Below, in pieces: positions 8,771-53,089 of a DNA stretch of 64,000 nucleotides. This DNA comes from an uncultured Actinomycetes bacterium (GTDB lineage: Bacteria > Actinomycetota > Thermoleophilia > Gaiellales > JAICJC01). Location of the stretch: positions 9,749-73,748 of the forward strand of contig CAWESH010000005.1 of NCBI GenBank assembly GCA_963811675.1. The letters are read 5' to 3'. The translations under genes were made by a program, and so were the position numbers. Position 1 is the first letter of the stretch. Every line of letters starts with the position of its first letter. The notes under the pieces are model-generated. The model ran no database searches. It had not been told where the DNA came from and saw only the letters and a list, made by a program, of their open reading frames with translations.

Positions 8771-9649
8771 GTGCCGTCGGCGGAGGTGCGCGACCGCTTC
8801 CGACTGACCACCGCGGAGCTGACCGAGCACCTCGATCTGCTCAACCTGGTCAACTTCGGCGGCGGTTGCTACGCCGTCTACTGCTCGACCGAGAACGGCT
8901 CGATCATCATCGACAAGGAGCTCTACGGCGATACCTTCCGGCGGCCGGCGCGGCTCTCCCCGTTGGAGGCCAAGGCGCTGCTGCGAGCGCTCGACGTGGT
9001 GGCGCCGCTGCTCGCCGCCGAGGCCCACAGCTCGCTGGACACCGTGCGCGCGAAGGTCGAAGCGTCGTTCGGCCGGTTTGCACTCGCCGACACCCCCACT
9101 CCGGTCCAGCCCAACGCCGAGGAGTCGGTCGTCACGGTGCTGAACGAGGGAGTGCGATCGCGGCGGCTGGTCGACATCACCTACCTCTCCCGCTCGTCGA
9201 GCGAACTCACCTCGCGCACGATCGAGCCGTACCTGCTGCGCCGCGACGAGCGCGGCTGGTACGTGGAGGCCTACGACGTCAGCCGCGACGCCCGGCGGAC
9301 ATTCAAGGTCGCCTACATCAAGGACGCAACGCTCCGCCAAGAGCTCTACCAGCCCCGGCCAGAGATGTCCGACCTGAACCGGGCCCTCGGCGGAGACGTC
9401 GGCATCGCCCGCGTCCGATTCTCACCCAAGCGCGCACGCTGGGAGCTGGAGGGTCGCCGCGACGCGGTGGCCACCACCGACGAGGCGGCCGTGGTCACGA
9501 TCACCTACGGCTCACCCGAGTGGCTGATCCCCGAGATCATGCGATACCGAGGCGACGCCGAGGTGCTGGAGCCGCCGGCGTTGCGCGACCGCATCAAGGC
9601 CGACGCCACGGCGCTGGTCGATCAGCTGCGGGCCGTGCCCGCCGGCTGA
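8771..9649 (+). CDS. PafC-like HTH-WYL transcriptional regulator (true N-terminus upstream of the first available start codon)
   Basis: RLVDITYLSRSS..RTIEPYLLRRDERGWYVEAYD is WYL-like. The same frame is open and homologous further upstream (..PERFALLQALLAFLLASCGDDARARV, from ~8690). I found no ATG/GTG/TTG in that stretch before the GTG at 8771. Confidence 0.75.
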   Translation: MPSAEVRDRFRLTTAELTEHLDLLNLVNFGGGCYAVYCSTENGSIIIDKELYGDTFRRPARLSPLEAKALLRALDVVAPLLAAEAHSSLDTVRAKVEASFGRFALADTPTPVQPNAEESVVTVLNEGVRSRRLVDITYLSRSSSELTSRTIEPYLLRRDERGWYVEAYDVSRDARRTFKVAYIKDATLRQELYQPRPEMSDLNRALGGDVGIARVRFSPKRARWELEGRRDAVATTDEAAVVTITYGSPEWLIPEIMRYRGDAEVLEPPALRDRIKADATALVDQLRAVPAG

Positions 9650-10591
9650 GAGTTGGCCAGCGCCACCCGGGCGTTTCGCTGCAGATACCTGCCGTCGCGC
9701 TCGGGCACGTACAGCCGCTCATACCTCGCGGCGAGGGCGTCACCGTCGCTCTCGAGCCAGTCGCTCAGCGGCGGGTACACGTCGTCGACGGCATCCGGTG
9801 AGAGGTGAGCCGCACGGCGCTCGGCGCCCCGGTTCCACGGGCACACCTCCTGGCAGATGTCGCAGCCGTAGACGCGATCGCCGAACGCCGCGGGGAACGG
9901 CAGCTGCTCGAGCCGCGACTGCGAGAGGTAGGAGAGGCAGCTCGAGGAATCGAGCACCCCTCCGTCCAGGATCGCGTCGGTCGGACAGGCATCGATACAG
10001 GCCGTGCACGAGCCGCACGCATCCCACGCGGGGCTCTCGGGATCCGCGGCGGTCGGTGCCAGCTCGACATCGGTGATGAGCGCTCCCAGCACCACCCACG
10101 AGCCGTGCTTGCGCGTGATCGCAAGCGTGTTCTTGCCGTACACCGCGATCCCCGCTCGGGCGGCGGCCTCTCGATCGACGTGGTGGTTGGAGTCGACGTG
10201 CACCACGAACCGCGCGCCCGGCCGACAGCGCCTTGAGGTGCTCGCCCAGCCGACCGAGGTCCTCGCGCAGCGGCTGGTACTCGTCTCGCCGGGTGTAGCG
10301 GGGAAGTCGCCCGCGGGGCAGGTCAGCGGGCTTCTCGGGCTCCGGACGGGCGTAGCTTCGGGCAGCGACCACCACCGACCGAGCGTTTCGCAGCAGCCGC
10401 TCGGGGTGACAGGAGCGGTCGGTGTTGGTCATCGTGAACCGCATGTCGGCAAACAGGCCCCGCGCCCGGCGCTCGCCGATCAGCTGCTCGGTGCGCTGGT
10501 ACGGCTCGGCCCGGCACACGCCGCAGGCGTCGATCCCAATCCGCTCGGCATGCTCGAGCACGGCGGCGGTCAGCTGCGCGGGGCTCGTCAC
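9622..10591 (-). pseudogene. queG: epoxyqueuosine reductase, one frame break
   Basis: The N-terminal half is in ORF 9740..10591 (..MRFTMTNTDRSCHPERLL..). The C-terminal half is in ORF 9622..10206 (VHVDSNHHVDREAAARAGI..YGKN..GSWVVLG..CGSCTACIDACPT..CDICQEVCPWN). The join is near 10205-10215 in the +1 direction. Length is 970 nt (3n+1). Confidence 0.85.
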
Positions 10592-10604
10592 GAACTGAAG
10601 TGGA

Positions 10605-10904
10605 TCAGAAGCCGAGCACGAACTTGGCGTCGTCCGACATCATCTCGGGCGTCCACGGGGGCGTCCAGGTGAGATCGGTGACGACCTCGCCGACACCCTC
10701 CAGGCTGCGCACGACCTCGCCGATCTGTTGCTCGATCTGGGCTCCGGCCGGGCATCCCATCGAGGTCAGCGAGTAGGTGACGGTGACCTTCTCGGGCTCG
10801 AGCCGCACGTCGTACACCAGTCCCAGATCGACGACATCCATGCCGAGCTCGGGATCCTCGACGGCCCGCAGGGCCTCGAACACGTCTTCTTCGGTAACGC
10901 TCAT
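10605..10904 (-). CDS. DUF59 / metal-sulfur cluster assembly factor family protein
   Basis: 99 aa from the internal Met. VFEALRAVEDPELGMDVVDLGLVYDV..TLTSMGCPAG is typical DUF59. The start overlaps the upstream stop (ATGA). Confidence 0.8.
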   Translation of the reverse strand: MSVTEEDVFEALRAVEDPELGMDVVDLGLVYDVRLEPEKVTVTYSLTSMGCPAGAQIEQQIGEVVRSLEGVGEVVTDLTWTPPWTPEMMSDDAKFVLGF

Positions 10905-24022: not shown

Positions 24023-24062
24023 CCGTGCGGGGCATCTGATCGCAGGGTCAACCCGACAGATT

Positions 24063-25193: not shown

Positions 25194-25602
25194 TCAGGCG
25201 TTCCAGGTTGCGTCCTTGGACGCCGAGTACTTGCTCGGGCACTTGGTCAGAAGCGAGTCCGGCTTGCCCTGAAACACCCCGGTCGAGCTGAGCCTGCCGG
25301 TGACGATCACGCTGCGCCCCACGCGAAACGCATCCGGGACCGAGCCGGTGTAGGCCACGGTGACGGTTCGCGGCGAGCTGAAGTCGCGCAGCACGAACCT
25401 GCACCGGACTCTGATCGCCGGTCGCGGAGACGACCTTGCCGGTGAGCTGCACCGTCTTTTGCTGGGCTCCGTCCTTGTCGGCCATCAGCTGATTGACGCT
25501 CACCAGCAGCTGTCCCGCGCCCGCGAACACGAAGTACCCCATGAACGCGACCAGCATCATCGAGACGACGAGAGCTATCACCAGGCGAGGACGAGCGTTC
25601 AT
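25194..25602 (-). pseudogene. ccmE: heme chaperone CcmE, CXXXY variant, one frame break
   Basis: MNARPRLVIALVVSMMLVAFMGYFVF..TVQLTGKVV.. in ORF 25186..25758. Then RFVLRDFSS..VTVAYTGSVPDAFRVGRSVIVTGRL..LLTKCPSKY in ORF 25194..25394, with a +1 join near 25400. The heme-binding position reads C-P-S-K-Y instead of H-D-E-N-Y. Length is 409 nt (3n+1). Confidence 0.8.
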
Positions 25603-25630
25603 GACGGCCAGACTAGCGCGCTCGCGCGGT

Positions 25631-25888
25631 TCAGGCAGTCGGATCTGGCACAGCGAACCCGAGATCGAGGCAGAGCTGACCACGCTGGGTCTCGCGCAGC
25701 GCGTCGGTGTAGCCCTGGCCGTAGGCCGCCCGCAGGAACCAGCCCAGCAGCTCGGCATCCAGGCGATCGGGGTCGACCTCGAACACCTCGGCCCACAGAT
25801 CGGCCAGCCGCAGGTCGATCGTCATCGCAAGATTGTCGCGTTCGGACTCCATACTCGAATCGTACGAACGCGGTCGGACGTCAATCAT
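25631..25888 (-). CDS. small hypothetical protein
   Basis: 85-aa ORF directly upstream of ccmE on the same strand, acidic and helical-looking. An internal Met at 25852 is an alternative start. No family recognised. Confidence 0.4.
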   Translation of the reverse strand: MIDVRPRSYDSSMESERDNLAMTIDLRLADLWAEVFEVDPDRLDAELLGWFLRAAYGQGYTDALRETQRGQLCLDLGFAVPDPTA

Positions 25889-25901
25889 CTACGCTCCAGG
25901 G

Positions 25902-26097
25902 ATGCCCGACAACCGCCCAGCAGAACGACTGGCTCGAGTGGGAACGCGAGGTGAATGCAGCGATCGCGGCGCTGCGCGCCGACGGCGGCCACCCGCGGGT
26001 CGTGCAGCTGCTCGAGCACCAGGTGACGGTGGCGCTGCACAACGCCTACTGCGAACAGCCGATCGCGTTTCCCCGCTCCGGCGTGCCGCTCGGCTGA
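25902..26097 (+). pseudogene. small hypothetical ORF whose only start codon is out of frame
   Basis: The coding-looking reading ..QQNDWLEWEREVNAAIAALRADGGHPRVVQLLEHQV..* has no in-frame start. The ATG at 25902 (MPDNR) is one frame away, and the join lies in cgccc near 25915. Confidence 0.25.
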
Positions 26098-26136
26098 CGG
26101 TCGCTGAACCAGCCGAGTGCGAGCGCGGTCTAACCG

Positions 26137-26910
26137 ATGTCCGTAACCCGCTCGCAGGAGGTTGGAGATGTCGGTGTCCGTTCAACGGTTGGTCGTCTGG
26201 CCGCCGCGCTGGTGCTCGCCGTGTTCGCGTACAACACTCTGGCCGGGCCACACCCGCGGGCGGTGGCGGCCACGTCGCCCAAGCCCGACATGCCGAGCTT
26301 CCTGCGCTTCGACGGCGAGGGCGGCGTCGCCATCCGCCCCGACCGCGCCACCATCCACTTCACCACCAGTGGCGAGGCGAGCACACTGGTGGACGCCACC
26401 AACCAGGCCAGCAAGACCATGCGCGCAGTGATCTCCGCCATGCACGCCGGCGGGGTCGCGCGCATCAACATGGTCACCGACGGGGCCAACGGGTACCAGA
26501 CCTCGACGGGCTACCACGCCGACCAGAACCTGACCGTGACCGTGATGAAGGTGGGAACGACCGGCAAGCTGACCGCCGCCGGCCTCGACGCCGGGGCCAC
26601 CGCCAACTACGGCCCTGACTTCTCGTCCGGGGCGAAGCACGCCGGCCAGTCCCGGGCGATCCGATCGGCGGTCGCCGACGCCCGCTCCAAGGCGGACGCC
26701 GCCGCCGCGGCCGCCGGCCTCCACGTCACCGGCGTGATCTCGGTGTCGGAAGCGCATGTCGCATACGGCTACCCGACATACATGGGTGACACCGCCGCCA
26801 AGGCCGCCGCACCGGGAGCACTCGAGGTGCCGATCCGGCGCGGCTCACAGCGGGTAACCGCAAACGTGACGGTGGTGTTCGCCTATGCCACCGGCACAGC
26901 TACCGGGTAG
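26137..26910 (+). CDS. SIMPL (DUF541) domain secreted protein
   Basis: N-terminal hydrophobic segment LAAALVLAVFAY. The ~230-aa body, ending ..RVTANVTVVFAY, fits my recollection of SIMPL/DUF541 proteins. Uninterrupted. Confidence 0.55.
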   Translation: MSVTRSQEVGDVGVRSTVGRLAAALVLAVFAYNTLAGPHPRAVAATSPKPDMPSFLRFDGEGGVAIRPDRATIHFTTSGEASTLVDATNQASKTMRAVISAMHAGGVARINMVTDGANGYQTSTGYHADQNLTVTVMKVGTTGKLTAAGLDAGATANYGPDFSSGAKHAGQSRAIRSAVADARSKADAAAAAAGLHVTGVISVSEAHVAYGYPTYMGDTAAKAAAPGALEVPIRRGSQRVTANVTVVFAYATGTATG

Positions 26911-26919
26911 CCCGTGAGG

Positions 26920-27324
26920 TCAGTCGTCGGCCTTCTCGAGCTCGAGCGCGGCCGAGTTGATGCAGTACCGCAACCCGCCGGCCTCACGCGGCCCATCCTC
27001 GAAGACGTGGCCGAGGTGGCCACCGCAGTTGGAGCAGATGACCTCGGTGCGCCGCATGAAGAAGCTGCGGTCGTCGTGGGTCTCCACGCCGTCGGCGGAC
27101 ACCGGCTGGGTGAAGCTCGGCCAGCCCGTGCCCGAATCAAACTTGTCGTCTGACCGAAACAGCTCTGCGTGGCAGGCGGCGCAGCGGTACACGCCGTCGT
27201 CGTGACAGTCGTAGTAGGTGCCGGTGAAGGCCGGCTCGGTGCCCTTCTCGCGCAGCACCTGGTACTGCGCCGGGGTCAGCTCGGCTCGCCACTGCTCTTC
27301 GGTCTTGGTGATCTTGCTCGCCAT
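26920..27324 (-). CDS. msrB: peptide-methionine (R)-S-oxide reductase
   Basis: Two CxxC pairs (CAAC, CSNC), GTGWPSF, GHLGHVF and RYCINS. Confidence 0.9.
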   Translation of the reverse strand: MASKITKTEEQWRAELTPAQYQVLREKGTEPAFTGTYYDCHDDGVYRCAACHAELFRSDDKFDSGTGWPSFTQPVSADGVETHDDRSFFMRRTEVICSNCGGHLGHVFEDGPREAGGLRYCINSAALELEKADD

Positions 27325-27437
27325 ACGTTGGCTCCCATTTCTGGTCGAAGGTTCCCTGAAGAATACGCTCGATGTGGTCCCGGTATGGCGCGGATTGTTA
27401 CACCCCCGGGCGGGCGCCGGTCTGCGAGCATGCGTGT

Positions 27438-27932
27438 ATGACCAGCGCCGTCAGCATCGAGATCGCCGGGCCCGAGCGGATCCCCGACGTCGAGCCGCTC
27501 TACCGTGAACTTCACCGCCACCACCGTGAGGTGGCGACCTCACGGCTGGTTGAGGATGAGGATCTGTCGTGGTCGAGACGGGCGGCCTGGTACCGCGAGA
27601 TACTCACCGGTGGTGACGGGTTCATGGTGCTCGCACGCCGCGACCAAACGCCGGTGGGATACGCGGTGGTCGAGATCCACACCGGCCCTGACGACACCTG
27701 GCCGGTGGGAGACACCTACGCCGAGGTACAGTCACTGGCGGTCTCCCCCGGCGAACGCGGCTCTGGGTTGGGCAGCCGGCTGATGGACACCGTCGATGCC
27801 GAGCTGATCCACCGAGGTGTGCACGACCTCGCCGTCGGGGTGCTGGCCGGAAACGAGGACGCCATCCGCTTTTACGAGCGCCGCGGCCTCCGCCCCGGCG
27901 AGCTGCAGATGTGGAGGTTCGGTGACAAATGA
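27438..27932 (+). CDS. GNAT family N-acetyltransferase
   Basis: LAVSPGERGSGLGSRLM acetyl-CoA motif and ..AIRFYERRGL. Start taken at MTSAV (27438). Confidence 0.8.
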   Translation: MTSAVSIEIAGPERIPDVEPLYRELHRHHREVATSRLVEDEDLSWSRRAAWYREILTGGDGFMVLARRDQTPVGYAVVEIHTGPDDTWPVGDTYAEVQSLAVSPGERGSGLGSRLMDTVDAELIHRGVHDLAVGVLAGNEDAIRFYERRGLRPGELQMWRFGDK

Positions 27933-27937
27933 CTCGC

Positions 27938-27970
27938 GTGAATAATAGGTGCCTGGCACCAATTATTCAG
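27938..27970. repeat. palindrome family copy 2 (imperfect)
   Basis: gtgaataataggtgcc-t-ggcaccaattattcag has the same GGTGCC-T-GGCACC core and TGAATAA/TTATTCA ends. There is one internal A.A mismatch and one terminal mismatch. It starts 6 nt after the GNAT stop. Confidence 0.85.
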
Positions 27971-27985
27971 GATGGGGCTGCGATC

Positions 27986-28328
27986 GTGGTGTTCGCGGTG
28001 CTGGGCATGCTGTCGCACGATGGCTCGGTGTTTGTGGCGGGCTTTGTGCGGGATGCCGTGCCACTCTTGGTGGGCTGGTTTGGCGTGGCCGCTCGTGGTC
28101 GGGACGTACCGCCACCCCAGCCGCGGGAAGCTGCTGATCACCTGGGCGATCGGGATTCCGCTGGGAGTCGCGATCCGAGCGGTGGCGCTGGGGCGGCATG
28201 CCGACGGCAAGCAGGCGGCCTTTCTGATCACCACCATGGTGTTCACGCTGGCGCTGGTGCTCGCGTTTCGCGCCGCGGGGGCGTACCTGGCTCAGCGATC
28301 GCCGGAGCGAAGCCAGAGTGACACCTGA
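27986..28328 (+). pseudogene. DUF3054-like small membrane protein, one frame break
   Basis: ..AAIVVFAVLGMLSHDG..FVRDAVPLLVGWFGVAA in the ORF 27929.. frame. Then LVVGTYRHPSRGKLLITWAIGIPLG.. in the ORF 27972.. frame, with a +1 join near 28085. Start is the GTG at 27986, or the ATG at 27929, which would translate through the palindrome. Confidence 0.5.
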
Positions 28329-29422
28329 CCGGGCTGAAGTGTCGATCCCACCACTCCCACCAGCTCGGTCGGACAGCGCGTCGAGATCGATCTGCTGACG
28401 CAGCCGGGTGCTGAACTCGTCCAGCGTCCTGGTGGCGTCGTAGCTGCTGCGGTAGAAGCGGTGGTCGACCAGCCGCTGCACCCGCCGGCGCACGGGGTGA
28501 AACGCGAGCGCGACCGCCAGCGTCGAGAGCGTCACCGCCACCGAATCCGACCAGCCCACCACGCTGCGAAAGCCCGTCGACAACAGCACCACCGCCCCCA
28601 GATAGAGGGCGCCCAGCGTGACCGCAACGCCTGCGTACACCAGCGTGCGCCGGATGATCACGTCGATCTCGTACAACCGGTAGCGAAAGATCGAGATGGC
28701 AAACGCGATCGGCAAGAGCGACCACGACGAGAACCACACGATCTCGGGGACCATCGTCGCTCGCCACGCCGATGATGACCATCACGACGAACGCGGCGAT
28801 GATCCATTTCAGCTGCTGGCGTTCGACGATCGTGCCGTGGCGGTAGCGCACCACCACTGCCGTAACCCCCGCTGCGAGTAATCCGAGCAGTGCGAACGCT
28901 GCAACGTTGAACGACGTACCCGGCCCCCGCGATGTACACAGGGTTGGGGATTCGCTCGTCGATCTGCGACTCCCCGAACACCGTCCCCAGCGTGGCGGCG
29001 GCGAGCGCGGCGCCTGCCACCCACGCCACCGGGCGCCAGCGCCGGGACGGGAGGTGGCCGTCCGGAATCAGCAGACCCAGGAAACACGCCGGCAACCCGA
29101 TCCCGACGATCCAGCCGGTGTCTCCGACCAGCCCCAGGGGCGTGGTGGCCGGCCAGCCCGTACCGGCGTTTTCGAAGTACGTCGCGCTCACGGCAGACAC
29201 GGAAATGATGAACGGCGTGACGCACAGGATCCACGCGAGGGCGTTCTTGGGTTGGCGCCCCACCACCAGGGTGCCCACGACCCCGTAGGACATCACGGCA
29301 AGCACGCCCGAGATCCCCGAGGCCACTCCGCTGGTGTCCCCGGCGGCGGCGAACACCACCAGGTTGATCAAGGTGACAACCGTCAACACGACGCCGATGC
29401 AGGTCGCGGTTCGGCCTGTCAT
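28292..29422 (-). pseudogene. multi-pass membrane protein resembling the N-terminal sensor part of a histidine kinase, three frame breaks
   Basis: Reading passes from ORF 28658..29422 to ORF 28243..28857 (VVRYRHGTIVERQQLKWII). It then passes to ORF 27963..28754 (IFRYRLYEIDVIIRRTLVYAG..VDHRFYRSSYDATRTLDEFSTRLRQQIDLDAL). The final frame reads ELVGVVGSTLQPGQVSLWLRSGDR*. No kinase core follows. All steps are +1 and the length is 3n. Confidence 0.55.
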
Positions 29423-29498
29423 GAGAGTGCTGGAGCGGATTGGTTCACCACGCTAAGTCTCCCACCGGACCGTTCCGGAGTCGTTACGGACGTCCGCG

Positions 29499-31586
29499 TT
29501 AGCAGTGGTCGCGGGGAAACTCATGCGTCCACGTGCGCGCGAACACCCGATGCCCACGTTCGCGCACGTCCAGCTCGGATGTGACCAGGAAGTGGGTGGC
29601 GGAGCTGGTCATCACCCCGGTCGCGCGGATGTCGACCCGGGAGTCCTCACGGCCGCCCACCGAGGTGTTCTCGACCCGCACCTCGGCCGACAGCGGATCG
29701 CCCTCAACCACGCTGTATGAGGCGACCGACGTGTCCTGATAGAGCAGCCCGTTGGGTATCCGGGTCAACGCCGCCCATGTCCCAGTCGAACGACAGCTCG
29801 GCGCGACCGCTGCCGAGGTCGCGGGTGACTGTTCGCGCCCCTCCGGGCCGGCCCTCGACCTGCTCGGTGGCAAGCGGCGCGGGCTCCTGCGGTGGATCGG
29901 GTGGCCGCGACGGGCCATCGTTCGGCCCTCGCCGGCCGCACGGGCAGCACCAGCTCGCTGCCCGCGCCGAGGTGCAGGGTGAGCGTCACAGGCTCGGGCG
30001 ACGGCCACGCCAGCGGCCAGTAGCACGGCGAGATCGACGAGCCGGATGCGGCTGCCGGCCTCGAATCGATGGGCGATCGAGTCGAGCTTGACGGTGATCG
30101 GATACTCCTGCCCCGGTTCCAGCAGGTGCCGGGTGTGCGTGGGAATCGCGATGGCAGAGGTTGAGCTGAGCGCGGGTCACCATGAGCGACGAACCGTCGG
30201 CGCGCAGCTCGCACAGCCGGACAGAGATCAGCGCCACCGGCCGGTCGGAGGACACCCCGACCGTGACCACCGGGAAGCCCAGGATCTCGAGCGGCTCTGG
30301 CAGCGGCGCGCCGGTGAACGTGAGCGAGCGGGCGTCGTCCACCGGCTGGTCGACCGGCAGGTCGGCCGAGCGGCCGTCGGCGCACCACGCGCCGCCGTCG
30401 AGACCGACGGTCTGGACGCTGCCGATGCTGCGCGTCAGCCCGTGCGACGCCGGATCGCCCAGCTCGCCGTCACCGAGCGCGAGCGTCAGCGGCTCGACTC
30501 AGCGGCGACGGCCACCGCTGCTCTGCCACCCACCGCCCCGGTCGCTGCTCCAGGTTGGCGCTGGGCGGCACCGAGTCCTGCATCCAGGCCACCACCATCG
30601 GCTCATGCGTCGATCCCGTTCTCGATGCCCTTCAGCCACCGATCCCACCAGCGCACGAACTCGCTCAGGATGCCGACCGCCGGGCCGGGGTTGCCGTGCA
30701 CCGGATCGTTGTGGCCCCACGGCCCGATCAGCGCCCGGCGCGGCACGTCGAGGCCCTCCATCAGCCGCAGCGCGGCGTCGTTGTAGCCGTCCGTCCAGCC
30801 GGCCACACACATCACCGCACACTCGATCTGGTCGTAGGCGCTCGCGCACCGCTGCCGTTCTCCCAGTACGCGTCGCGGCGCTGGTGCGCAAGCCAGTGCT
30901 CGATCCACGGCGGCTGCTCGAGCCGCTCCAGCCACATCTCACGCCAGCGCTCGCCGACCACCTCGGGGTCCGGCGGGCGGGCCTGCCAGGCGTGCATGCA
31001 GGTCGACCAGTGCACCATGTCCATCGGCTCGACCAGCCCGCCGCGGTAGTGCACGTCGTCGGCGAAGCGGTCGTCGGAGGCAAAGCACGAGGCGATCGCC
31101 TTCAACGCCGGCGGCCGCAGCGCCGCGACCTGGAGCGCATTGAAGCCGCTCCAGGAGTAGCCCATCATGCCGACCGCTGCCGGTGCACCACGGCTGAGCT
31201 GCCAGCCATGCGATCACCTCGACGCAGTCGGCCTGCTCTTGCGCGGTGTACTCGTCGCTGAGGATGCCCGTCGGACTCGCCACTGCCGCGGATGTCGACG
31301 CGCACACCGGCGTAGCCGTGACCCGGCGAACCAGGTCATCTGCTGGTGGTCGCCGGCGACCGTGCCGTCGTTGAGCCGGTAGGGCACCGCCTCGAGCACC
31401 GCGGGCACGGGATCGGCGATCGGCGTCGTCGGGCAGCCACACCCGCGCGGCCAGCCGGGTGCCGTCGCTCATGGGGATGAAGAGGCCGGTGCGGACGGTC
31501 GGGGTGCGGGGAAACGAGGTGACGGTGAGGGGGCGGTCAAGAGCGGGAGGATCCCAGAAACCGGCGATCACGCGGCGGCGCGGCAA
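29499..31586 (-). pseudogene. CocE/NonD (S15 X-Pro dipeptidyl-peptidase-like) hydrolase, at least six frame breaks
   Basis: Fragments spread over ORFs 30939..31586, 31214..31408, 30812..31168 (MMGYSWSGFNALQVAAL), 30603..30935 (VAGWTDGYND..GPWGH), 29986..30342, 29765..30388 and 29499..30026. The successive steps I could follow are all +1. Confidence 0.75.
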
Positions 31587-31610
31587 AGCCGATCAGGTAG
31601 GTTCTCGCGC

Positions 31611-33103
31611 ATGGAGCGGCCACCGACCCGTACGCGACCTGGACTGGGACGCCGACCGCGCTCGTGACCTGACCGAGCGGATGCTGGGCATCTGGAGCGA
31701 GCTGCTCGACGGCATGCGCGACCTGCCCGTCGAGCCGGGTCGAGCCGGCGGCCGACGTCGCCGAGGCGATGCGGCTGCCGATCGGTCTCCGAGCCGCTGG
31801 CGCCCGAGCAGATCGAGACGTCTGATGCGCGAGTTGGTGTTCGACCACTCCGCGCTGTGCGGCCACCCGGGATTCCTGGCGTACGTCTCCGGTGCCGGCA
31901 CCGTTCCCGGCGCCGCTGCCGACCTGCTGGCGTCGCGACTCAATCCCAACGTGGGCGGCTGGGTGCTATCGCCCGCGGCCACCGAGCTCGAGCTCCACCT
32001 GATGCGGTGGATGGCCGAACTGTTCGGACTGCCAGCCGGGCCGGCGGCCTGATGACGAGCGGCGGCGCCACCTCCAACCTGACTGCACTCAAGGCCGCGC
32101 GCGACAGCCGAGCCACCGGCGACATCCGCCGCGACGGGATCACCGAGCGGCTTGGCGATCTACACCTCCGCGGAGGCGCACGCCACGATCGAGGAGGCCG
32201 GGGACATGCTCGGCCTGGGGTCGCGGGCGGTGCGGCCGTCCCCACCGACGAGCGCCAGCAGATGCGCGTCGACCTGCTCGAGCAGGCTATCGAGGCGGAC
32301 ATCGCCGACGGTGTGCGGCCGATCGCCGTGGCCGCGACCGCCGGCACCACCGCCACCGGCTCGATCGATCCGCTGGACCAGGTCGCGCAGTGATCTGCCG
32401 CCGCCACGACCTGTGGTTCCACGTTGATGCCGCCTACGGTGGTGCGGCGATGTTCGCGCCGGCGCTGCGGCCCTTGCTGCGCGGCATCGAGCTGGCCGAC
32501 TCGATCACGTTTCGATCCGCACAAGTGGCTCTACACCCCCCACGCCAGCGGCTGCCTGCTGGTGCGAGACCCGCGCATCTGGGTCGCAAGCTACGGCTCC
32601 GACGCCGCCTACGTGTACGAGGATCGCGACCTCACCGGGCGCCGGCCGAGCTTCGGCGAGCTGGGACCGTCGTGGTCTCGGCCGTTCGTCGCGCTCAAGG
32701 TGTGGATGTCACTGGCCGCCCACGGACTGGACGCCTACGCCCGTCGGATCGCCCACGACGTGGATCTGGCCAGGTATCTCCACGCCGAGGCGACCCGCCG
32801 GGCGAACTCGAGCCGATGGCGCCGGTGGCGCTCTCGATCGCGTGCTTCCGATACGTGCCCGCCGACCTGCCGCCCGCCGCCGGTCGTGAGACGTACCTGA
32901 ATCGATCTCAACGAACGCCTGCTGCACGAGATCCGCGTGCACGGCCGGACCTTCCCCAGCAACGCCGAGATCGACGGCGCCTACTGCCTGCGGGCCTGCA
33001 TCGTCAACTACCGGGCCGAGGCCGACACATCGACGCTCTGCTTGACACCGCCGTGACCCTCGGACGGCAGCTGGATCAGCAGCTGCGCCCGTCAGTCGGG
33101 TAG
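31611..33103 (+). pseudogene. group II pyridoxal-phosphate-dependent decarboxylase, at least six frame breaks
   Basis: HPGFLAYVSGAGT.., [58 protein letters not shown] and ..FRYVPADL lie on different frames (ORFs 31459, 31857, 32152, 32390, 32424 ..). Confidence 0.75.
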
Positions 33104-34292
33104 CAGCGGCACCGACCAGCCCTGGTCGCGGCCCAGCAGCACCGCTCGCGTGATCGCCGCCGTGCCGAACCGCGCGCGCACCTGATCGACCGCCGCATCG
33201 AGCGCGCTGTCGCGGGCGCGCTCGAATGGGAGCATCAGCTGCATCGGGGTCTCGTTGTCCAGATTGGCCACCGCCACGCCGATCAGCGTCAGGCCGCGGT
33301 GACTGATCATGGGCGCGGCGAATGCCAGCAGCTGCCGGGCGGTGGACAGCACCAGCTGCGTCTCGGCGGTCGCAAACGGCAGCGTGTGCGACCGCGTCGC
33401 CCGCGAGAAGTCGTCGAAGCGAAAGCGCAGGACGACGGTGCGACCCGACCCGACCGGCGAGTCGCATCCGCCGGGTGACCCGGTCGACCAGCGAGATCAG
33501 GATGGCGTCGATCTCCTCCATCGACCGCCTCGATCGGCCCAGTGCCCGCTGCGAGCCGATCGAACGCCGCCGCCGCCTGGTCTGCACCGGCCGGGGATCG
33601 CGATTGTGGGCGAGCGCATGCAGATGCCTCCCCGAGGCCGCGCCCCAGCAGCGACACCAGCGCGGCCTCGTCCAGCCGGGCGACCTGGGCCACGGTCACG
33701 ATCCCCCGCTCGCGCAGCTTCCTCGACAGTCACCGGCCCCACGCCCCACAGCCGCTCCACCGGCAGCGGGTGCAGGAACTCGAGCTCTCCGTCGGGCGGC
33801 ACCACCAGCAGGCCGTCGGGCTTGGCCACCCCGCTCGCCACCTTGGCCAGAAACTTGGTGCGAGCGATGCCGACGGTGATCGGCAGTCCCACCCGTTCCA
33901 GCACCGCCCGCGCGCAGCCGCACAGCGATGTCGACCGGCGATCCGGCGATCCGCCGCATCCCGCGCACGTCCAGAAACGCCTCGTCGATCGAGAGCCCCT
34001 CCACCAGCGGCGAGGTGTCGTCGAAGACTCGGTAGACCGCCTTGCTTGCCTCGGAGTAGGCGGTCATGCGCGGCCGCACCACGATCGCGTGCGGACACAG
34101 CCCGCGGGCCTGCCGACCGCTCATCGCGGTGCGGACGCCGTGGGCCTTGGCCTCGTAGCTGGCTGCCAGCACCACACCGCCGCCGACGATCACCGCCCGT
34201 CCACGCAGGCGGGGATCGTCTCGCTGCTCGACCGACGCGTAGAACGCATCCAGGTCGGCGTGGAGAATGGTCGCCTCGGCCATATCGAACAT
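33092..34292 (-). pseudogene. dinB: second Y-family DNA polymerase IV copy, four frame breaks
   Basis: ILHADLDAFYASVEQRDDP..ASYEAKAHGVRTAM..SIDEAFLDV in ORF 33696..34292. Then GIARTKFLAKVASGVAKPDGLLVV..ERLWGVGP (33497..33904), then 33307..33699, then 32709..33587, then 33092..33352 (..RARFGTAAITRAVLL). Each step is +1. Length is 1201 nt (3n+1). Confidence 0.8.
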
Positions 34293-34360
34293 ATGTTCGC
34301 ATACACCGGCGGTCTACCGCAAAGATTGCGGCCGCGGCGGCACGTTCGGCCAGCCGGTCG

Positions 34361-35161
34361 TCACCCCAGCTGCTCGACCCAGCCGGCGAAGTCGGCCGTC
34401 GGGCCGGCCCAGCGCAAGATCGTCATCCTCGCTGAACAGCTCGGCACCGTCTCGGAGCGTGGCCAGATCCTTGAACAGCAGCGCCAGTTCGCGGCGTGTC
34501 GTCGCTGAGCACCTCGTCGGGGAACTGCCTCGATCGGCCCGTGCTGGTTCACCAGGCGCGCGGCCGTCACCCGGCCGATCCCGGGAATCCCCGGGTAGCC
34601 GTCGGCCGAGTCACCCACCAGCGCCAGCAGGTCGGGGATCAGCACGGGATCCACACCGAACTTCTCGCGCACCCCCTCGGCATTTCGGATCGCCTTGGCG
34701 CGACGGTCGACCTGCACCACCCGGTCGCCGCGAACGGACTGTCCCAGATCCTTGTCCGGCGTCCAGATCCGCACCTGCTCGACGGCGTCGTCGGCGTCTG
34801 CGATGCGAGCCGCCGAGGCCAGCCCGTCATCGGCTTCCAGCTCGATCATCGGCCAGATCGCGACCCCCATCGCGGCCACCGCCTGCTCCAGCGGCTGAAA
34901 CTGCGAGAACAGCGCGATCGACCCCCGCCCGGTCTTGTACCCCGCCCACAGATCGTTTCGGAAGGACTCGATCACGTGGTCGGTTGCCACCCCGATGTGG
35001 GTCGCGCCCTCCTCGATCATCTGCAAGAGCGAATGCAGAACACCGATGACTGCGCCGAACTCCACGTCCTCCGAAGCGCCCCTGCGCCTGCCGTAGAACT
35101 GGCGGAAGAGCTCGTAGGTGCCGTCGATGAGGTGGATGACCATCACCTGCGATGGTGCCAC
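34361..35161 (-). CDS. 5'-3' exonuclease / flap endonuclease (PIN-like), open but with an internally scrambled segment
   Basis: VIHLIDGTYELFR.., ELEADDGLA and GDSADGYPGIPGIG are FEN-like. Between ~34523 and ~34415 the expected sequence (DEVLSDDTP / RELALLFKDLATLRDGAELFSEDDDL) reads in the two other frames, and the listed frame returns for ..RWAGPTADFAGWVEQLG*. Confidence 0.75.
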   Translation of the reverse strand: MAPSQVMVIHLIDGTYELFRQFYGRRRGASEDVEFGAVIGVLHSLLQMIEEGATHIGVATDHVIESFRNDLWAGYKTGRGSIALFSQFQPLEQAVAAMGVAIWPMIELEADDGLASAARIADADDAVEQVRIWTPDKDLGQSVRGDRVVQVDRRAKAIRNAEGVREKFGVDPVLIPDLLALVGDSADGYPGIPGIGRVTAARLVNQHGPIEAVPRRGAQRRHAANWRCCSRIWPRSETVPSCSARMTILRWAGPTADFAGWVEQLG

Positions 35162-35165
35162 AGAA

Positions 35166-35496
35166 TCAATCGTCGGCGAACAGGATGAGGGCCAGCACGG
35201 CCCACATCAACAGCTCGGTCACGGCGTAGTCCAGCCACAGAAGCGCGATTGCGGGCGAGGCTGCCGGCGGCCCGCCGATGCAGTTCCAGGTGGCCCCGCT
35301 CGGCGCGAGCCCAGATATAGCCCCCGTCCTCGAGATCACCCGACTGGTAGCGGCACAGGAGCTTCACGAAGCTGTCCCTGCGGCCGCGTCCGGGACTGTG
35401 TGTGCGGGTGGTTGCCTGTCGGTCATGCACATAGTCGACCAGGAATCCCCGCCGCTGACCTCCGGCATTCTCCCAGTCCGGGTAGTATTGGGGCAC
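35166..35496 (-). pseudogene. small hypothetical protein with possible C-terminal TM tail in another frame
   Basis: ORF 35143..35496 starts MPQYYPDWENAGG... From ~35255 an alternative frame gives WNCIGGPPAASPAIALLWLDYAVTELLMWAVLALILFADD* (stop 35166-35168), which looks more protein-like than the Arg-rich listed tail. Confidence 0.25.
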
Positions 35497-35577
35497 GCGC
35501 GATGAGGCTCGCGCCTAACCGCCCTCAGGGGCTGATGGCCTCTACCACTCGGTAGAACCACGTCCTGGAGGTGTGCG

Positions 35578-36958
35578 GTGAGCGATCTAGCCCTGGCAGC
35601 GCTGCTGACGACGGCGATTCTTTTGGCGAGCATGGTGTCGATCGAGGCCGGCCTCTCGGTCGCGCTGATCGAGCTGGCCGCCGGCGTCGCGGTGGGAAAC
35701 CTGTTCACGGTGAGCGTGCCCGACTGGCTCTCGTTCATCGGCACGTTCGCGGGTGTGCTGCTGACGTTCCTGGCCGGCGCGGAGGTCGACGTGCCCCAGT
35801 TTCGCCGCGAGTGGCGGGCCAGCGTCCTGATCGGCGCGGTCTCGTTTGCCGCGCCGTTCGTGGTCGCACTCGGAGCCTGCTACTGGCTGGCCGGGTGGAA
35901 CCGAGACCAGGCCGAGATCGGCGGGTCTGGCACTCTCCACCACCAGCCTGGCAGTCGTGTACGCGGTGCTGGTCGAGACCGGCCTCAACCGCTCGATCAT
36001 CGGCAAGCGGATCATGTCGGCGACGTTCATCACCGACATCCTCACGGTGATCGGCCTGTCGGTGCTGTTCGTCACCCCCAACCTGTGGGTGATCCCGTTC
36101 GTGGTGCTCTCGATCGCGTTCATCTGGGGCCTCCCCAAGATCGCGCCGTGGTTCTTCGGCCGCTACGGCGACCGGGTGATCGAACCCGAGATCAAGCTGG
36201 TGTTCGCCGCGCTCTTCGTCCTGATCTACTTCGGCACCAAGGCCGACAGCCAACCGGTGCTGCCGGCGTTCATCCTCGGCCTGGCGATGAGCGGCCACTA
36301 CGCCCAGCACCGCCAGGAGCAGGAGCGCCTGCGCGTGGTCGCATTCGCGTTTCTGACGCCGTTCTTCTTCATCAAGGGCGGCCTCAACGTGTCGCTCTCG
36401 GCGGTGTGGGCAAACCTGGGCGTGCTGGCCCTGCTGATCGTGGCCAAGATCGCGCCCAAGTTCGCCGGCGTCTACCCGCTGGCGCGTCGCTACACCAAAC
36501 CGCACGCGGCGTTCACGACGCTGCTGATGTCGACCGGCCTGACATTCGGCACGATCACGTCGTTGTACGGACTCCAGGCGGGGATCATCGACGAGACCCA
36601 GTTCTCGCTGCTGGTGACGGTGGTCGTGCTGTCGGCGATCGTGCCCACCGCGATCGCCCAGCACTTCTTCAGCCCCACCGCGGAGCAGGTCGCCGCTGAG
36701 GTCGACCCCAGCGAGCGAGGCGCACCCAGCCTCGCGCGAGAGAGCGCTACCGAGCCGGCAACGGCGGTGGGAGGCGCACCGTCGCGACCGTGCCACCGCC
36801 CGGCCGATCCGCGAGCGAGATCGATCCCTGCTGAACCTCGGCCAGCGCCTGGGAAATCGCGAGGCCGAGCCCGATGCCCTCGCCGTCATGGGCGAAGCGT
36901 TCAAACAGGTGGTCGCGCACCTTGGGGTCGATGCCCGTGCCACGATCGGCGACCGTGA
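35578..36958 (+). pseudogene. cation:proton antiporter (CPA family), one frame break, 3' end uncertain
   Basis: GTG at 35578 with GGAGG 7 nt upstream. TM-rich MSDLALAALLTTAILLASMVS..LTFLAGAEVD.. in ORF 35578.., then ALSTTSLAVVYAVLVETGL..FFFIKGGLNV.. in ORF 35846.., with a +1 join near 35920. The last ~70 codons overlap the convergent kinase gene and are probably not genuine. Confidence 0.75.
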
Positions 36959-38103
36959 TCTCGACATGCTCACCGCGGGTCGTCGCCGAAAACTCGATGG
37001 GCGAGCCGACAGGGCTGTGTTCCTGAGCATTTCGGGCAAGGTTGAGCACGATCTGGCGCAGCACGTCCTCGTCGGCCGATGCGGTGCTGCCGTCCCCCGC
37101 AACGACCGCCCACTCCCGGTCACCTAGCCGTGAAAGCTGGGAGGCGACCGACTGGAGCAGCGGCTCGACCGGCACGGCCACGATGTTGAGTCGCTCGACC
37201 TCACTCGCGCGGGCCAGCTGCAGCAGTCCGTCCACCAGCCGGCCCATCCGGTCGATCTCGGCGATCGCCACGTCCACCGCCTCATCGCGCTGCTCCGTGG
37301 TGGCGTCGGGATTCTCTGCCAGCAGCTCCAGGTGGCCGCGAGCGATCGTCAGCGGTGTGCGCAGTTCGTGGGACGCATCTTCGAGGAACCGCTTCTGCGA
37401 GTCGAAGGCCGTCTCCAACCGGTTGAGCATGCGGTCGATGGCAGCCGCCACTGCACCGATCTCGTCGCGGTTTTCGAGTCCTGTCCGCAGCCCCATGGCA
37501 TCTGGCGCGACTTCGTTCGCCAACGTCGTGATCGACTCCAGCGGCCGCAGGCCGCGGCGCGCCGCGAACCACGCGCCCACCGTGGTCAGGACCACGCCGA
37601 CGGCGCCGGCCAGGAGCGTGGCGTGAAGCAGGCTCTCCATCGATTCCAACACCGGCTGAAGCGGGGCCGCTGCCAACGCGTATTCACCACTGTCGATCGG
37701 CACCACGCTGACTCGGAACTTCCCCGACGGAAGCTGCAGCGTGGCCACATGTGCTCTCTGGGAGAACAGCCCCGACTCCGCGCGCCCGGGTTGCGAGCAC
37801 ACGCGCATCAGCGTTTGGGGCGATCACGCGGTGGTCGTCATACAAGGCAAGCAGGTGGCCCGAGGCGACCGCTTCGCGCGCGTTCACGAATCGCTCACTC
37901 GAGCCCGGCTCATCCCCGTGTTCGGCTCCCTCCGCACGACCGCCGAGCTTGTCGGCGTCGGCTCGGAGTGAGCTGTCGACTCGGTTGAGCGCGTTGCGGT
38001 GGGCGTACTCGTACACGGTCAGCAGGCTGATGGCGAGCACGATCATCGCCAGGCCGGCATAGAGCAGCGCCAGCCGCGTGCGCAGGGACACGTGCCTGAT
38101 CAT
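36747..38103 (-). pseudogene. sensor histidine kinase (HAMP-HisKA-HATPase), one frame break
   Basis: The N-terminal TM/sensor part is in ORF 37684..38103. The rest is in ORF 36747..37808 (FLEDASHELRTPLT, NLARNAQEH, DRGTGI, GIGLGLAI). The +1 join is near 37790. Length is 1357 nt (3n+1). Confidence 0.8.
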
Positions 38104-38759: not shown

Positions 38760-38760
38760 G

Positions 38761-49654: not shown

Positions 49655-52030
49655 CTCATCCACGGATGTACGTTTGACATCCGCCCAGGCCCAGGCGATC
49701 GACGCCTACTGGCGGGCCGCGAATTACCTGTCGGTGGGCCAGATCTACCTGCTCGACAATCCGCTTTTGCGAGAGGCGCTGGTGCCTGCCCATGTCAAGC
49801 CGCGGCTCTTGGGCCACTTCGGAACGGCACCGGGCCTCAACCTGATCTACGCACATCTCAATCGCGTGATCTGTGAGCGCGACCTGAACATGATCTACGT
49901 CGCCGGCCCCGGCCACGGCGGCCCGGCGCTGGTGGCCAACGCCTACCTCGAGGGCACCTACTCCGAGGTCTACCCCGATATCGGTCGAAACATCGACGGA
50001 CTGCGCAAGCTGTTCCGCCAATTCTCGTTCCCGGGCGGCATTCCCAGCCACGTCGCACCCGAGACGCCGGGATCGATCCACGAAGGCGGAGAGCTCGGCT
50101 ACTCGCTCGCACACGCGTTCGGCGCGGCCTTCGACAATCCCGACCTGGTGGTCGCCTGCGTGGTCGGAGACGGAGAGGCCGAGACCGGCGCGCTGGCCGC
50201 GAGCTGGCACTCCAACAAGTTCCTCAACCCCCGCAATGACGGCGCGGTGCTCCCGATCCTTCACCTCAACGGCTACAAGATCGCGAACCCGGCGGTGCTG
50301 GCGCGCATCCCCGAGCACGAGCTGGTGTCGCTGTTCGAGGGCTATGGATGGCATCCGCTGGTGGTCACCTGCGAGATCTCCGACCCCCACGAGGTCGTGC
50401 ACCAGTCGATGGCCGCCGCGCTCGACCAGGCGTTCGACGAGATCGCCGCGATCCAGCACGCGGCCCGCGAGGAGGGGGCGGTGAGTCGGCCCACCTGGCC
50501 GATGCTGATCCTGCGATCGCCGAAAGGATGGACGTGCCCCAGCGAGGTCGACGGACTGCCGGTCGAGGGGACGTGGCGGTCGCACCAGGTGCCGGTGGCC
50601 AACGCCCGGGGAACCTCGAACACCTGGCGATTCTGGAGACATGGCTGCGAAGCTACCGGCCGAACGAGCTGTTCGACGTGGGCGGGGCACCGAACCGCGA
50701 GTTCGACCGGCTCCACCCGCAGGGCGAGCGGCGGATGAGCGCCAACCCCCACGCCAACGGGGGCTGCCTGCTGAAGGATCTCGATCTGCCCGACTTCCGC
50801 CGCTATGCCGTTGCCGGTCACGGCTCCGGGGACCACCTCCAGCGAGGCGACTCGCGTGCTGGGAGAGTTCCTGCGAGATGTGATCACCAAGAATCCCGAA
50901 CACGTTTCGGCTGTTCGGGCCGGACGAGACCGCCTCGAACCGGCTTTCGGCGGTGTTCGAGGCGACCAGCCGCGCGTGGGACGCCGAGACGCTCGCGGTC
51001 GACGTGGAGCGCACCCCTGACGGCCGGGTGATGGAGGTGCTGTCCGAGCAGCTCTGCGAAGGCTGGTTGGAGGGCTATCTGCTGACCGGGCGCCACGGCC
51101 TCTTCAACTCGTACGAGGCGTTCATCCACATCGTCGATTCGATGTTCAACCAGCACGCCAAGTGGCTCAAGGTGAGTCGCCAGATCCCATGGCGACAGCC
51201 GGTGGCGTCGCTCAACTATCTGCTCAGCTCCCACGTCTGGCGGCAGGATCACAACGGCTTCTCGCATCAGGATCCCGGGATTCATCGACCACGTCGTGAA
51301 CAAACGTGCCGAGGTGGTGCGCGTGTATCTGCCGCCGGACGCAAACACGCTGCTGTCGGTCGCCGCCCACTGCCTGGCAAGCCGCGACTACGTCAACGTG
51401 ATCGTGGCGGGCAAGCAGCCCACTCTCAACTACCTCTCGATGGACGATGCGGTCGATCACTGCACACGCGGAGCCGGCATCTGGGACTGGGCCTCGAACG
51501 ACGGCGACGCCCAGGAGCCGGACGTGGTGATGGCGTGCTGCGGCGACACCCCCACCCTCGAGACGCTGGCCGCGGTCGCCGTTCTCCGTGAGCGGCTTCC
51601 GGATCTGCGCGTGCGCGTCGTGAACGTGGTTGACCTGATGCGCCTGCAACCAGAGACGGTGCATCCGCACGGGATGTCCGACGCCGAGTTCGATGCGCTC
51701 TTCACCACCGATCGGCCGGTGATCTTCGCCTACCACGGCTACCCCGCACTGATCCACCGGCTCACGTACCGGCGCACCAACCATCGCAACATCCACGTGC
51801 GCGGCTACAACGAGGAGGGAACCACGACCACGCCGTTCGACATGGTGATCCTGAACGACCTCGACCGCTTCCATCTGGTGATGGACGTGATTGATCGCGT
51901 GCCCGGCCTCGAATCGAGTGCCGGCCACATTCGGCAGGACATGGTCAGCAAGCGGCTGCGCTGCCGCCAGTGGACGCGCGACCACGGTGAGGATCCCGCG
52001 GAGATCACCGATTGGGCGTGGCCGTACTGA
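49647..52030 (+). pseudogene. xfp: phosphoketolase (xylulose-5-P/fructose-6-P), four frame breaks
   Basis: [34 protein letters not shown] and GDGEAETG in ORF 49647... Reading continues in ORFs 50348.., 50805.., 50953.. ([22 protein letters not shown]) and 51296.. (..VIFAYHGYP..). Joins are near 50620 (-1), 50810, 50900 and 51285 (+1 each). Length is 2384 nt (3n+2). Confidence 0.85.
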
Positions 52031-53089
52031 CCGACGGCGACATCCTGGTGGTGAACGCCGGCTCGACCAGCCTCAAGCTGCGCGTGGTCGCACGCGACGG
52101 GCAGGCGACGGCGGTCGACTCACTGGACGGCGTTCGCGGCGAATCGATCGCGGCAGTCGGACATCGCATCGTTCACGGCGGGTCGCGCTACCGCGATCCG
52201 GTGCTGGTGGATGAGACGGTGCGGCGCCAGATGATCGAGCTGGAGGAACTCGCGCCGCTGCACAACGCGCCGGCCCTCGCAGCGCTGGACGACGCCCGCG
52301 CGCGGTTCCCCGACATCCCCCATGTCGCGGTGTTCGACACCGGTTTCCATGCGACCATCCCGCCCGAAGCGGCGATCTACGCGGTGCCGCGGGAGTGGCG
52401 CGAGCAATGGGGGATTCGCCGCTTCGGCTTCCACGGCCTCTCGGTCGCCTGGTCGGCCCAACGCGCCGCAGAGCTGCTGCAACCTCCGCCGTCTCCGCTT
52501 CGGCTGGTGGTGTGCCATCTCGGCGGAGGCTCGTCGGTGACCGCGGTGGTGGACGGGCGCTCGGTGGACACCACCATGGGCTTCACGCCGCTCGAGGGCG
52601 TACCGATGACCACACGCTCGGGCTCGGTCGATCCCGGGCGCGGTGCTGCACGTGCTGCGCCGTTCGGGCATGACGGTGGACGCACTCGAGCATCAGCTGG
52701 AACGCGAATCCGGCCTGCACGCCCTGACCGGCACCAGCGGAGACGTCCGCGATCTCGAAGCCGCAATCCGCAGCGGAGACGTCAACGCCAGACTCCCGCT
52801 CGACCACCTCAGCCTGCGTGTCGCGGGAGCGGTCGCCGCGATGGCCGTGTCGGCCGGTGGCATCGAGGCGCTCGTGTTCACCGCCGGCGTCGGCGAAAAC
52901 TCCTCGTTGGTGCGCGCGGCGGTGTGCGACCGGCTCAGATTCCTCGGCGTGCACCTCGAGCCGACTCGAAATCGGGACGCCGTGCCCGACTGTGACATCG
53001 CAGACGACAAATCGCCCGCTCGGATCCTGGTGGTGCACGCCCGGGAGGAACTGATCGCTGCCAGACTCATTCGCGCGTATCTGGGCTGA
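52012..53089 (+). pseudogene. ackA: acetate kinase, one frame break
   Basis: ILVVNAGSTSLK, VGHRIVHGG, LAPLHNP-like, FDTGFH, RFGFHG and HLGGGSS in ORF 52012... Then AVLHVLRRSGMTVDALEHQL..ESGL..GTSGDVRDL..FTAGVGENS in ORF 52643... The join is near 52635, where ccc ggg C gcg gtg has an apparent extra C. Confidence 0.85.

Follow-up and report, generated by a model that had tools for sequence, protein, structure and literature searches.

The DNA analysed here (the window) is a 64,000-nucleotide stretch of contig CAWESH010000005.1 from an uncultured Actinomycetes bacterium. Between 27.8 and 35.1 kb it encodes a DUF3054 protein, a multi-pass membrane protein, a CocE/NonD-type hydrolase, a PLP-dependent decarboxylase, a Y-family polymerase (the second dinB of the window) and a 5'-3' exonuclease, and the reading frames of all of these are interrupted (Table 1). 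Protein families were assigned by running Pfam on the orthologues in a close relative, L002, and on single-frame segments of the window. The L002 orthologues matched DUF3054 for the first gene, Peptidase_S15 (4.6e-67) and PepX_C (1e-18) for the hydrolase, placing it in the CocE/NonD family, Pyridoxal_deC for the decarboxylase, and 5_3_exonuc_N plus 5_3_exonuc for the exonuclease. The second dinB showed IMS, IMS_HHH and IMS_C in order and is a DNA polymerase IV (DinB). These assignments agree with the first-pass annotation, which had been made from the letters of the DNA, except for its description of the membrane protein as sensor-like. That protein matched no Pfam family at E<=0.001 and gave sub-threshold noise alone at E<=1, and a Pfam search of it for a sensor, HisKA or HATPase domain found none. 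The protein spans the membrane several times and belongs to no family recognisable in Pfam, and the sensor-like label is not confirmed.

Table 1. Frame-broken genes of the window, with coordinates in the window and the breaks found in each
Gene	Position	Strand	Breaks
First dinB	6413..7472	-	split over three frames; outside the block
QueG-like epoxyqueuosine reductase	9637..10606	-	split at ~10218
DUF3054 gene	27808..28328	+	extra base at start (27927) and one internal (28092)
Multi-pass membrane protein	28243..29452	-	3-4 extra bases: 28367/28371, 28754, 28913
CocE/NonD-type hydrolase (Peptidase_S15 + PepX_C)	29499..31478	-	12 private single-base insertions near 29765, 29925, 30037, 30130, 30499, 30609, 30838, 30853, 31175, 31266, 31321, 31416; one in-frame 3-nt insertion (30447-30449)
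PLP-dependent decarboxylase (group II, aromatic-amino-acid-type)	31601..33103	+	~7 insertion events, near 31731, 31817-31822, 32152, 32388-9, 32510, 32904; 4 single-base deletions near 32031, 32238, 32801, 33028
Second dinB (Y-family polymerase)	33092..34313	-	four single-base insertions: 33443, 33638, 33727, 33911
5'-3' exonuclease	34314..35143	-	five single-base insertions at 3' end, all in last 200 nt: 34330, 34363, 34413, 34497, 34528; three deleted bases (1+2) at 34911-34929, spanning ~18 nt, net in-frame
Phosphoketolase + acetate kinase	49683..53083	+	split over four and two frames, respectively

The breaks were counted by aligning each gene to its orthologue in L002 or in the outgroup L001. 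Multiple breaks had been claimed for four genes between 28.2 and 34.3 kb (the block), and this is what the alignments show, with 3-4 frame corrections in the membrane protein, 12 in the hydrolase, about 11 in the decarboxylase and 4 in the second dinB. The coding sequence contains about one break per 185 nt, a higher density than the earlier figure of one per 250-300 nt; the decarboxylase has the highest break density of the whole window. The breaks are also evident from the window sequence itself, where their presence is confirmed: the GC3 phase shifts abruptly every 100-500 nt over 28.3-34.3 kb, and the codon-usage Viterbi path over the block changes frame repeatedly on the same strand. Within each fragment of the block genes, the GC3 periodicity is preserved. 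Once the frames are corrected, no stop codon is left in the genes of the block, which confirms the first-pass remark that all stops there result from the shifts. Identity of the corrected proteins to their orthologues is 83-98.5%: the second dinB 98.5%, the membrane protein 97.5% and the DUF3054 protein 96.5% to L002, the hydrolase 88.3% to L001 across 656 aa, and the decarboxylase 83% to L002 and 87% to L001.

The breaks in the block are very uniform in size. One nucleotide is gained or lost in 44 of the 48 indel events, insertions outnumber deletions 33:15, and deletions of more than 5 nt are absent from the block. When the left flank and the block are pooled, the bias toward insertion is significant (48 versus 22, p=0.0025). 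The inserted bases have the composition of the background, and the run lengths in which they lie (42/21/3, against background fractions of 0.59/0.30/0.08) are like those of random positions. A natural indel spectrum, with mixed sizes, a deletion bias, a preference for repeats and homopolymers, and indels much rarer than substitutions, was therefore not found in the block. Nanopore consensus errors classically fall in homopolymers, as indels that are often deletions, and the homopolymer association that constitutes this signature was likewise not found. The position of the insertions outside homopolymers speaks to some degree against the explanation favoured below, whose error process would not be the classical one.

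The same kind of defect extends across the whole window. A reference-free analysis identified 37 frame switches, 31 of which are +1 (p=4e-5), and the bias is present both within 28-36 kb (12:2) and outside it (19:4). Pfam domains of single genes are accordingly distributed over different frames far from the block. In the first dinB, IMS and IMS_HHH lie in 6887-7471, IMS_C residues 3-69 in 6549-6884 and residues 72-107 in 6415-6546; in the QueG-like gene, QueG_DUF1730 occupies 10220-10606, and Fer4_16 occupies 9637-10218. The phosphoketolase (49683-52012) is distributed as XFP_N 8-312, XFP_N 318-363, XFP 15-140, and XFP 142-177 with XFP_C, and the acetate kinase is split near 52627 into Acetate_kinase 81-242 and 245-391. 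At a shift rate of 0.6-0.8 per kb, about every second gene would be broken, central metabolism included.

Against this background the block does have a statistical excess of breaks. Indel events relative to L002 number 8.0 per kb in the block, 3.4 in the left flank and 3.0 in the right flank (binomial p=5.6e-6), and reference-free frame switches number 1.75 per kb in 28-36 kb and 0.41 elsewhere (p=8e-5). The block is thus a 2.5- to 4-fold local hotspot on a window-wide background. The statement that its break rate is far above that of the rest of the window was correct as to the excess but overstated its degree, as frameshifts are abundant elsewhere too. The idea of the block as a distinct entity does not survive this comparison, since +1 shifts with a common signature are scattered over the whole window and are merely most concentrated here.

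Comparison with relatives provides a way to assign the breaks to a lineage. L002, a Nanopore-only Microflora Danica MAG, is 93.5% identical to the window in DNA over 21801-35144, and the gene order of the block is identical in the two. Unbroken open reading frames are present in L002 for the decarboxylase (498 aa), the second dinB (405 aa) and the exonuclease (304 aa), while its hydrolase and membrane protein have a single shift each; the check for synteny and largely intact genes in close relatives that had been proposed for the block therefore came out positive. In a three-way alignment, nearly all gaps that break a frame occur in the window alone, with L002 and L001 agreeing at those positions. 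L002 has frameshifts of its own, and all five of its +1 shifts are at sites that are intact in the window. A copy from the same species with intact genes at >98% identity was not found among JGI metagenome contigs (best match 71% at the amino acid level) or in a collection of 5.8 billion proteins (best 85%). Three intact proteins of the window, looked up by exact sequence, had no record either.

If the extra bases were mutations, they should be accompanied by substitutions. The private branch of the window is very short, with substitutions at about 0.5% of positions (2-3 in every 500 nt), and over 29500-33100 it carries about 25 indels and about 30 substitutions. Bacterial mutation spectra lead one to expect about one indel per 10 substitutions, and on that expectation even fully neutral evolution on this branch would yield only a handful of indels in 6 kb, whereas over 30 are present. 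The private substitutions number 8 in the hydrolase (3/0/5 at the three codon positions) and 22 in the decarboxylase (5/5/12), and the test for relaxed selection on the window branch revealed neither an even codon-position excess nor in-frame nonsense codons. Pairwise dN/dS between the window and L002 is 0.05-0.24, but this mostly reflects the L002 branch and has little power on recent decay. A relative-rate test places about 90% of the window-versus-L002 differences on the L002 branch, and pairwise dN/dS was downgraded as a test of decay for this reason.

These data bear directly on the possibility of a very recent and true pseudogenisation, in which the block and many other genes were inactivated by single-base insertions, as in a lineage entering genome reduction or a frameshift-prone mutator. 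The breaks are unquestionable in the sequence and significantly clustered, the affected genes are dispensable-looking accessory enzymes and a redundant second dinB, and pairwise dN/dS would be blind to decay limited to the short private branch. We nevertheless regard such decay as very improbable. The private branch has roughly one indel for every substitution, nonsense mutations and deletions of more than 5 nt are lacking, and the insertions lie outside homopolymers, unlike slippage mutations. Moreover, phosphoketolase, acetate kinase and QueG are broken in the same way, with about one shift per 1.5-2.5 kb over the window, so that roughly half the genome would be disabled while codon bias stays perfect, and the independent related MAG L002 has a matching +1 signature at other sites. 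The first-pass annotation had weighed true decay against artefact without choosing between them, but it had found the lack of in-frame stops odd for an old pseudogene cluster. Its doubt about old decay is supported by the ordered and largely intact genes of the relatives, the 83-98.5% identity of the corrected proteins, the lack of stops and the near equality of private indels and substitutions.

Comparison with known systems leads in the same direction. In decay of the Mycobacterium leprae type, adjacent genes on both strands also suffer several disruptions each, with the orthologues of relatives in order and largely intact. However, such decay also brings nonsense mutations, a non-synonymous excess, larger deletions and an erosion of codon bias. 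The window shows none of these, and the roughly 1:1 ratio of indels to substitutions on the private branch is unlike it as well. Programmed ribosomal frameshifting and transcriptional slippage likewise yield a product encoded over two frames, but these processes involve a single shift in a gene, at a specific slippery motif, whereas genes in the window have up to 12 shifts at unrelated sites without a motif. Programmed frameshifting was rejected because the shifts in each gene are too many and no motif accompanies them.

The closest parallel is provided by the consensus-indel artefacts of long-read (Nanopore or PacBio CLR) assemblies, as revealed by truncated-protein tests of the IDEEL type, in which single-base indels fragment conserved genes (PMC9262707). 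There, as in the window, indels greatly outnumber substitution errors, affect genes of any function, differ between assemblies of relatives, and vanish on frame correction. Textbook Nanopore errors are indels in homopolymers, whereas the window has mostly insertions outside homopolymers. The only close relatives of the window are Nanopore-only Microflora Danica MAGs, assembled by Flye --meta and polished once with Medaka, from a catalogue that was screened by its authors for Nanopore-associated errors (PMC12313526). Assemblies of this kind are known to carry frameshifts from consensus indels when coverage is below about 40x (PMC9262707).

The breaks in the window are private, nearly all one nucleotide long and biased toward insertion; the relatives are intact at the affected sites, and one signature recurs throughout the window regardless of gene function, core metabolic genes included. 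With high confidence, we take them to be consensus errors of an error-prone metagenome assembly rather than mutations of the organism; the assembly was most likely a long-read one. Stray single bases, mainly insertions, would have remained throughout the consensus of the contig, most densely at about 27.9-34.6 kb with a peak at 31-32.5 kb. We infer that both the breaks and their local excess have a technical origin, the hotspot probably being the stretch of lowest effective read support or quality, that is, a coverage or quality trough. The density of insertions varies along the contig, with two in 35.5-43 kb and none in 26.3-27.8 kb, where mismatch counts are similar or higher; clean stretches despite divergence fit a regional variation of consensus quality. 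The underlying membrane protein, CocE/NonD hydrolase, PLP decarboxylase, DinB and 5'-3' exonuclease would then be ordinary and functional.

One variant of this explanation invokes strain collapse, in which diverged co-occurring strains were merged at a recombination-prone, strain-variable locus to give an indel-riddled consensus. The locus is indeed a mosaic among relatives: dS from L002 differs strongly from gene to gene (0.03-0.47), the decarboxylase is nearer to L001 than to L002, and L001 has no gene for the membrane protein. The error peak coincides with the most divergent gene, and within 21.8-35.1 kb insertion and mismatch counts are weakly correlated (rho=0.44, p=0.02). Over the whole aligned span, however, insertions do not follow divergence (rho=-0.09), and conserved genes of low divergence are frameshifted too, making strain collapse a possible but rather unlikely source of the errors. 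Mismatches to L002 are not enriched beside the insertion gaps, and a doubling of alleles at strain-variable sites was rejected on this ground.

A second variant replaces random low-coverage noise with systematic errors of base calling in specific contexts, such as methylated motifs. Two of the frameshifts private to L002 are within about 7 nt of insertions in the window, one in the hydrolase gene (30123-30130) and the other, a 1-nt deletion in the membrane-protein gene, at a GTCGACC site (28367-28371); a rough estimate of the joint chance of both near-coincidences is about 0.4%. The k-mers TCGA, TCG and GAC are mildly enriched near insertions, with 10 TCGA-containing contexts observed and 3.7 expected (raw p=0.003). 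None of these enrichments survives correction for multiple testing (153 tests), 40 of the 50 insertions lack a TCGA context, and a motif alone would explain neither the regional hotspot nor why 26.3-27.8 and 35.5-43 kb are clean. Systematic error of this kind is therefore improbable.

The remaining reading takes the extra bases as real products of a recent genome-wide burst of +1 insertions outside homopolymers, with a regional hotspot, in a soil actinobacterial lineage. Aberrant polymerase or repair activity, for example, could cause such a burst, and the lineage would have been sampled ahead of any effect of substitutions or selection. An insertion-only mutational burst would be without precedent and the evidence is strongly against it; we find this reading scarcely credible.

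The value of these results is in quality control, because apparent pseudogene clusters on contigs of uncultured lineages can be consensus artefacts. They can be recognised without reads by polarising indels with two relatives, comparing private indels with private substitutions, considering indel size and direction, and asking whether core genes elsewhere are broken alike. Judged from its sequence, the block is most likely not a true biological feature, and the frameshifts, if taken literally, would distort what is concluded on the gene content of this genome, its number of pseudogenes and its completeness.

Since the window has a GC content of ~68%, coding frames are clearly visible as GC3 periodicity, and over 28.3-34.3 kb the phase of that periodicity shifts once per 100-500 nt. 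A codon-usage Viterbi path, with the window's long ORFs as its training set, likewise makes repeated same-strand frame changes along the block. These two signals show that the multiply broken genes described in the first-pass annotation are real. Alignment of 21801-35144 with the closest relative (L002) shows 78 gaps, mostly single extra bases on the window side. Once the extra bases are removed, the five block and flank proteins contain no in-frame stops, in agreement with the earlier remark that the only stops are those made by the shifts.

Features of the block, its right flank and the wider window (identities are for the corrected protein against its orthologue)
Feature	Window position	Pfam or Rfam match	Frame disruption	L002 protein	Identity
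First dinB	6413-7472		Pfam domains cut mid-profile into different frames		
Tandem WYL+WCX proteins	7582-9634 (+)	WYL+WCX; second also HTH_PafC			
QueG-like reductase			cut at ~10218, Pfam domains in different frames		
Membrane protein	28280-29499		3-4 extra bases	401 aa	97.5%
CocE/NonD hydrolase		Peptidase_S15+PepX_C	12 single insertions, one in-frame triplet	637 aa, open frame	88.3% (vs L001)
PLP decarboxylase		Pyridoxal_deC	~7 insertion events, 4 single-base deletions	498 aa	83-87% (orthologues)
Second dinB		IMS/IMS_HHH/IMS_C	4 single insertions	405 aa	98.5%
5'-3' exonuclease		confirmed	5 insertions close to 3' end	304 aa	95.3%
Unmatched segment, 343 nt	35145-35487				
Fluoride riboswitch	35489-35551 (+)	RF01734, 42.6 bits (gathering score 34)			
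Na_H_Exchanger-family gene	about 35590-36769		one extra T at ~35926		
Phosphoketolase-acetate kinase pair	49683-53083 (+)				
Phosphoketolase	49683-52012	XFP_N/XFP/XFP_C	Pfam domains over four frames		
Acetate kinase		Acetate_kinase	cut at ~52627, Pfam domain in different frames		

A scan over one genome per GTDB species, with the hand-reconstructed decarboxylase as query, turned up two closely related MAGs, each labelled 'uncultured Actinomycetes' and produced by the Microflora Danica (MFD) long-read project. L002 is 93.5% identical to the window in nucleotides at 21801-35144 and 90.7% at 35488-43382; the outgroup L001 is 76-87% identical in three segments. No same-species sequence was found in JGI metagenome contigs or in a 5.8-billion-protein collection. 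The synteny of the block, which had been proposed as a check, is borne out in L002, where gene order is identical. Pfam upholds the earlier calls of hydrolase, decarboxylase, dinB, exonuclease and the flanking DUF3054 gene, and also confirms a GNAT gene there, but the 'sensor-like' label is not confirmed, as the membrane protein matches no Pfam family.

The block had also been said to break far more often than the rest of the window. It is indeed a hotspot, with 8.0 indel events per kb against L002 versus ~3.2 in the flanks (p=5.6e-6), and 1.75 versus 0.41 switches per kb elsewhere when same-strand frame switches away from stop codons are counted without a reference (p=8e-5). However, the same +1 breaks occur window-wide: 31 of the 37 reference-free switches are +1 (p=4e-5), the ratio of +1 to other switches being 12:2 within 28-36 kb and 19:4 outside. 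The block is thus not special in kind. The observed density would mean that about every second gene is broken, central metabolism included, which is not credible given the pristine codon bias of the genome. Insertions are nearly absent from 26.3-27.8 kb and 35.5-43 kb despite similar or higher divergence, an unevenness to be expected if consensus quality differs from region to region.

Among the other genes of the window, the phosphoketolase-acetate kinase pair of this uncultured soil actinobacterium is fragmented in both members by +1 shifts. The tandem WYL+WCX genes, with HTH_PafC in the second, form a PafB/PafC-like regulator pair; their junction at ~8631, flagged by the Viterbi path as a possible frameshift, may be a simple gene boundary. 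To the right of the block, L002 homology restarts exactly at the fluoride riboswitch, directly upstream of the Na_H_Exchanger-family gene, which is also frame-broken. The segment that separates the riboswitch from the start codon of the exonuclease corresponds to ~50 unrelated nt in L002. It has coding-like minus-strand GC3 in two frames and a small ORF whose C-terminal end is hydrophobic; it has no Pfam match and no repeat copy elsewhere in the window or the loci.

In the three-way alignment L002 and L001 agree at nearly all break sites of the block, and therefore the indels are private to the window. With L001 as outgroup, window-private substitutions amount to ~0.5% (2-3 per 500 nt), versus 4-15% on the L002 branch; because substitutions lie mostly on that branch, the pairwise dN/dS of 0.05-0.24 is mostly a record of L002 history and is weak evidence. 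In bacteria about one indel is expected for every ten substitutions, mostly within a homopolymer or a short repeat, and the deletions that build up in pseudogenes vary in size. Real, very recent pseudogenisation is very improbable: against the ten-fold rarity expected, the window-private branch carries ~25 indels and ~30 substitutions over 29500-33100. Moreover, 44 of the 48 block events involve just one nucleotide, there are 33 insertions to 15 deletions, inserted bases lie in runs of 1, 2 and 3 (42/21/3) as at random positions and have background composition, and no nonsense codons, large deletions or codon-bias loss accompany the block indels.

The block breaks are very probably assembly consensus errors: spurious single-base insertions would have persisted in the consensus when the metagenome was assembled by an error-prone method, probably from long reads, and the peak at 31-32.5 kb probably reflects a local drop in effective read support. 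Textbook Nanopore error differs, however, from this insertion-biased, non-homopolymer profile. A contribution from strain collapse is plausible, the locus being mosaic among relatives (dS per gene 0.03-0.47), but the mismatch-adjacency test lends it no support. L002 has putative frameshifts of its own; the strong ones are +1 in 5/5 cases, at sites intact in the window, and further private shifts lie in its hydrolase and the C-terminus of its membrane protein. MFD long-read MAGs are Nanopore-only, assembled with Flye --meta and one round of Medaka, and the catalogue was checked by its authors for Nanopore-associated sequencing errors (PMC12313526). When coverage falls under about 40x, assemblies of this kind are known to carry consensus indels that break genes up (PMC9262707). 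At 30123-30130 and 28367-28371 (L002 8306 and about 6557-6560), private frameshifts of window and L002 lie within ~7 nt of each other, one site in a GTCGACC context, with a roughly estimated joint chance of ~0.4%; a context- or methylation-dependent systematic error may be common to both assemblies.

The membrane-protein gene, present in the window and L002, is missing from L001, whose homologous segments on either side lie only ~23 nt apart, and is accessory in this group. Over 21801-33100 branch lengths are strongly asymmetric (window-private ~0.5% throughout, L002-private 0.4-15% by region), and the decarboxylase is nearer L001 than L002. This pattern points to an L002 lineage that is mosaic or has recombined heavily, or else to a window lineage that is central or very slow.
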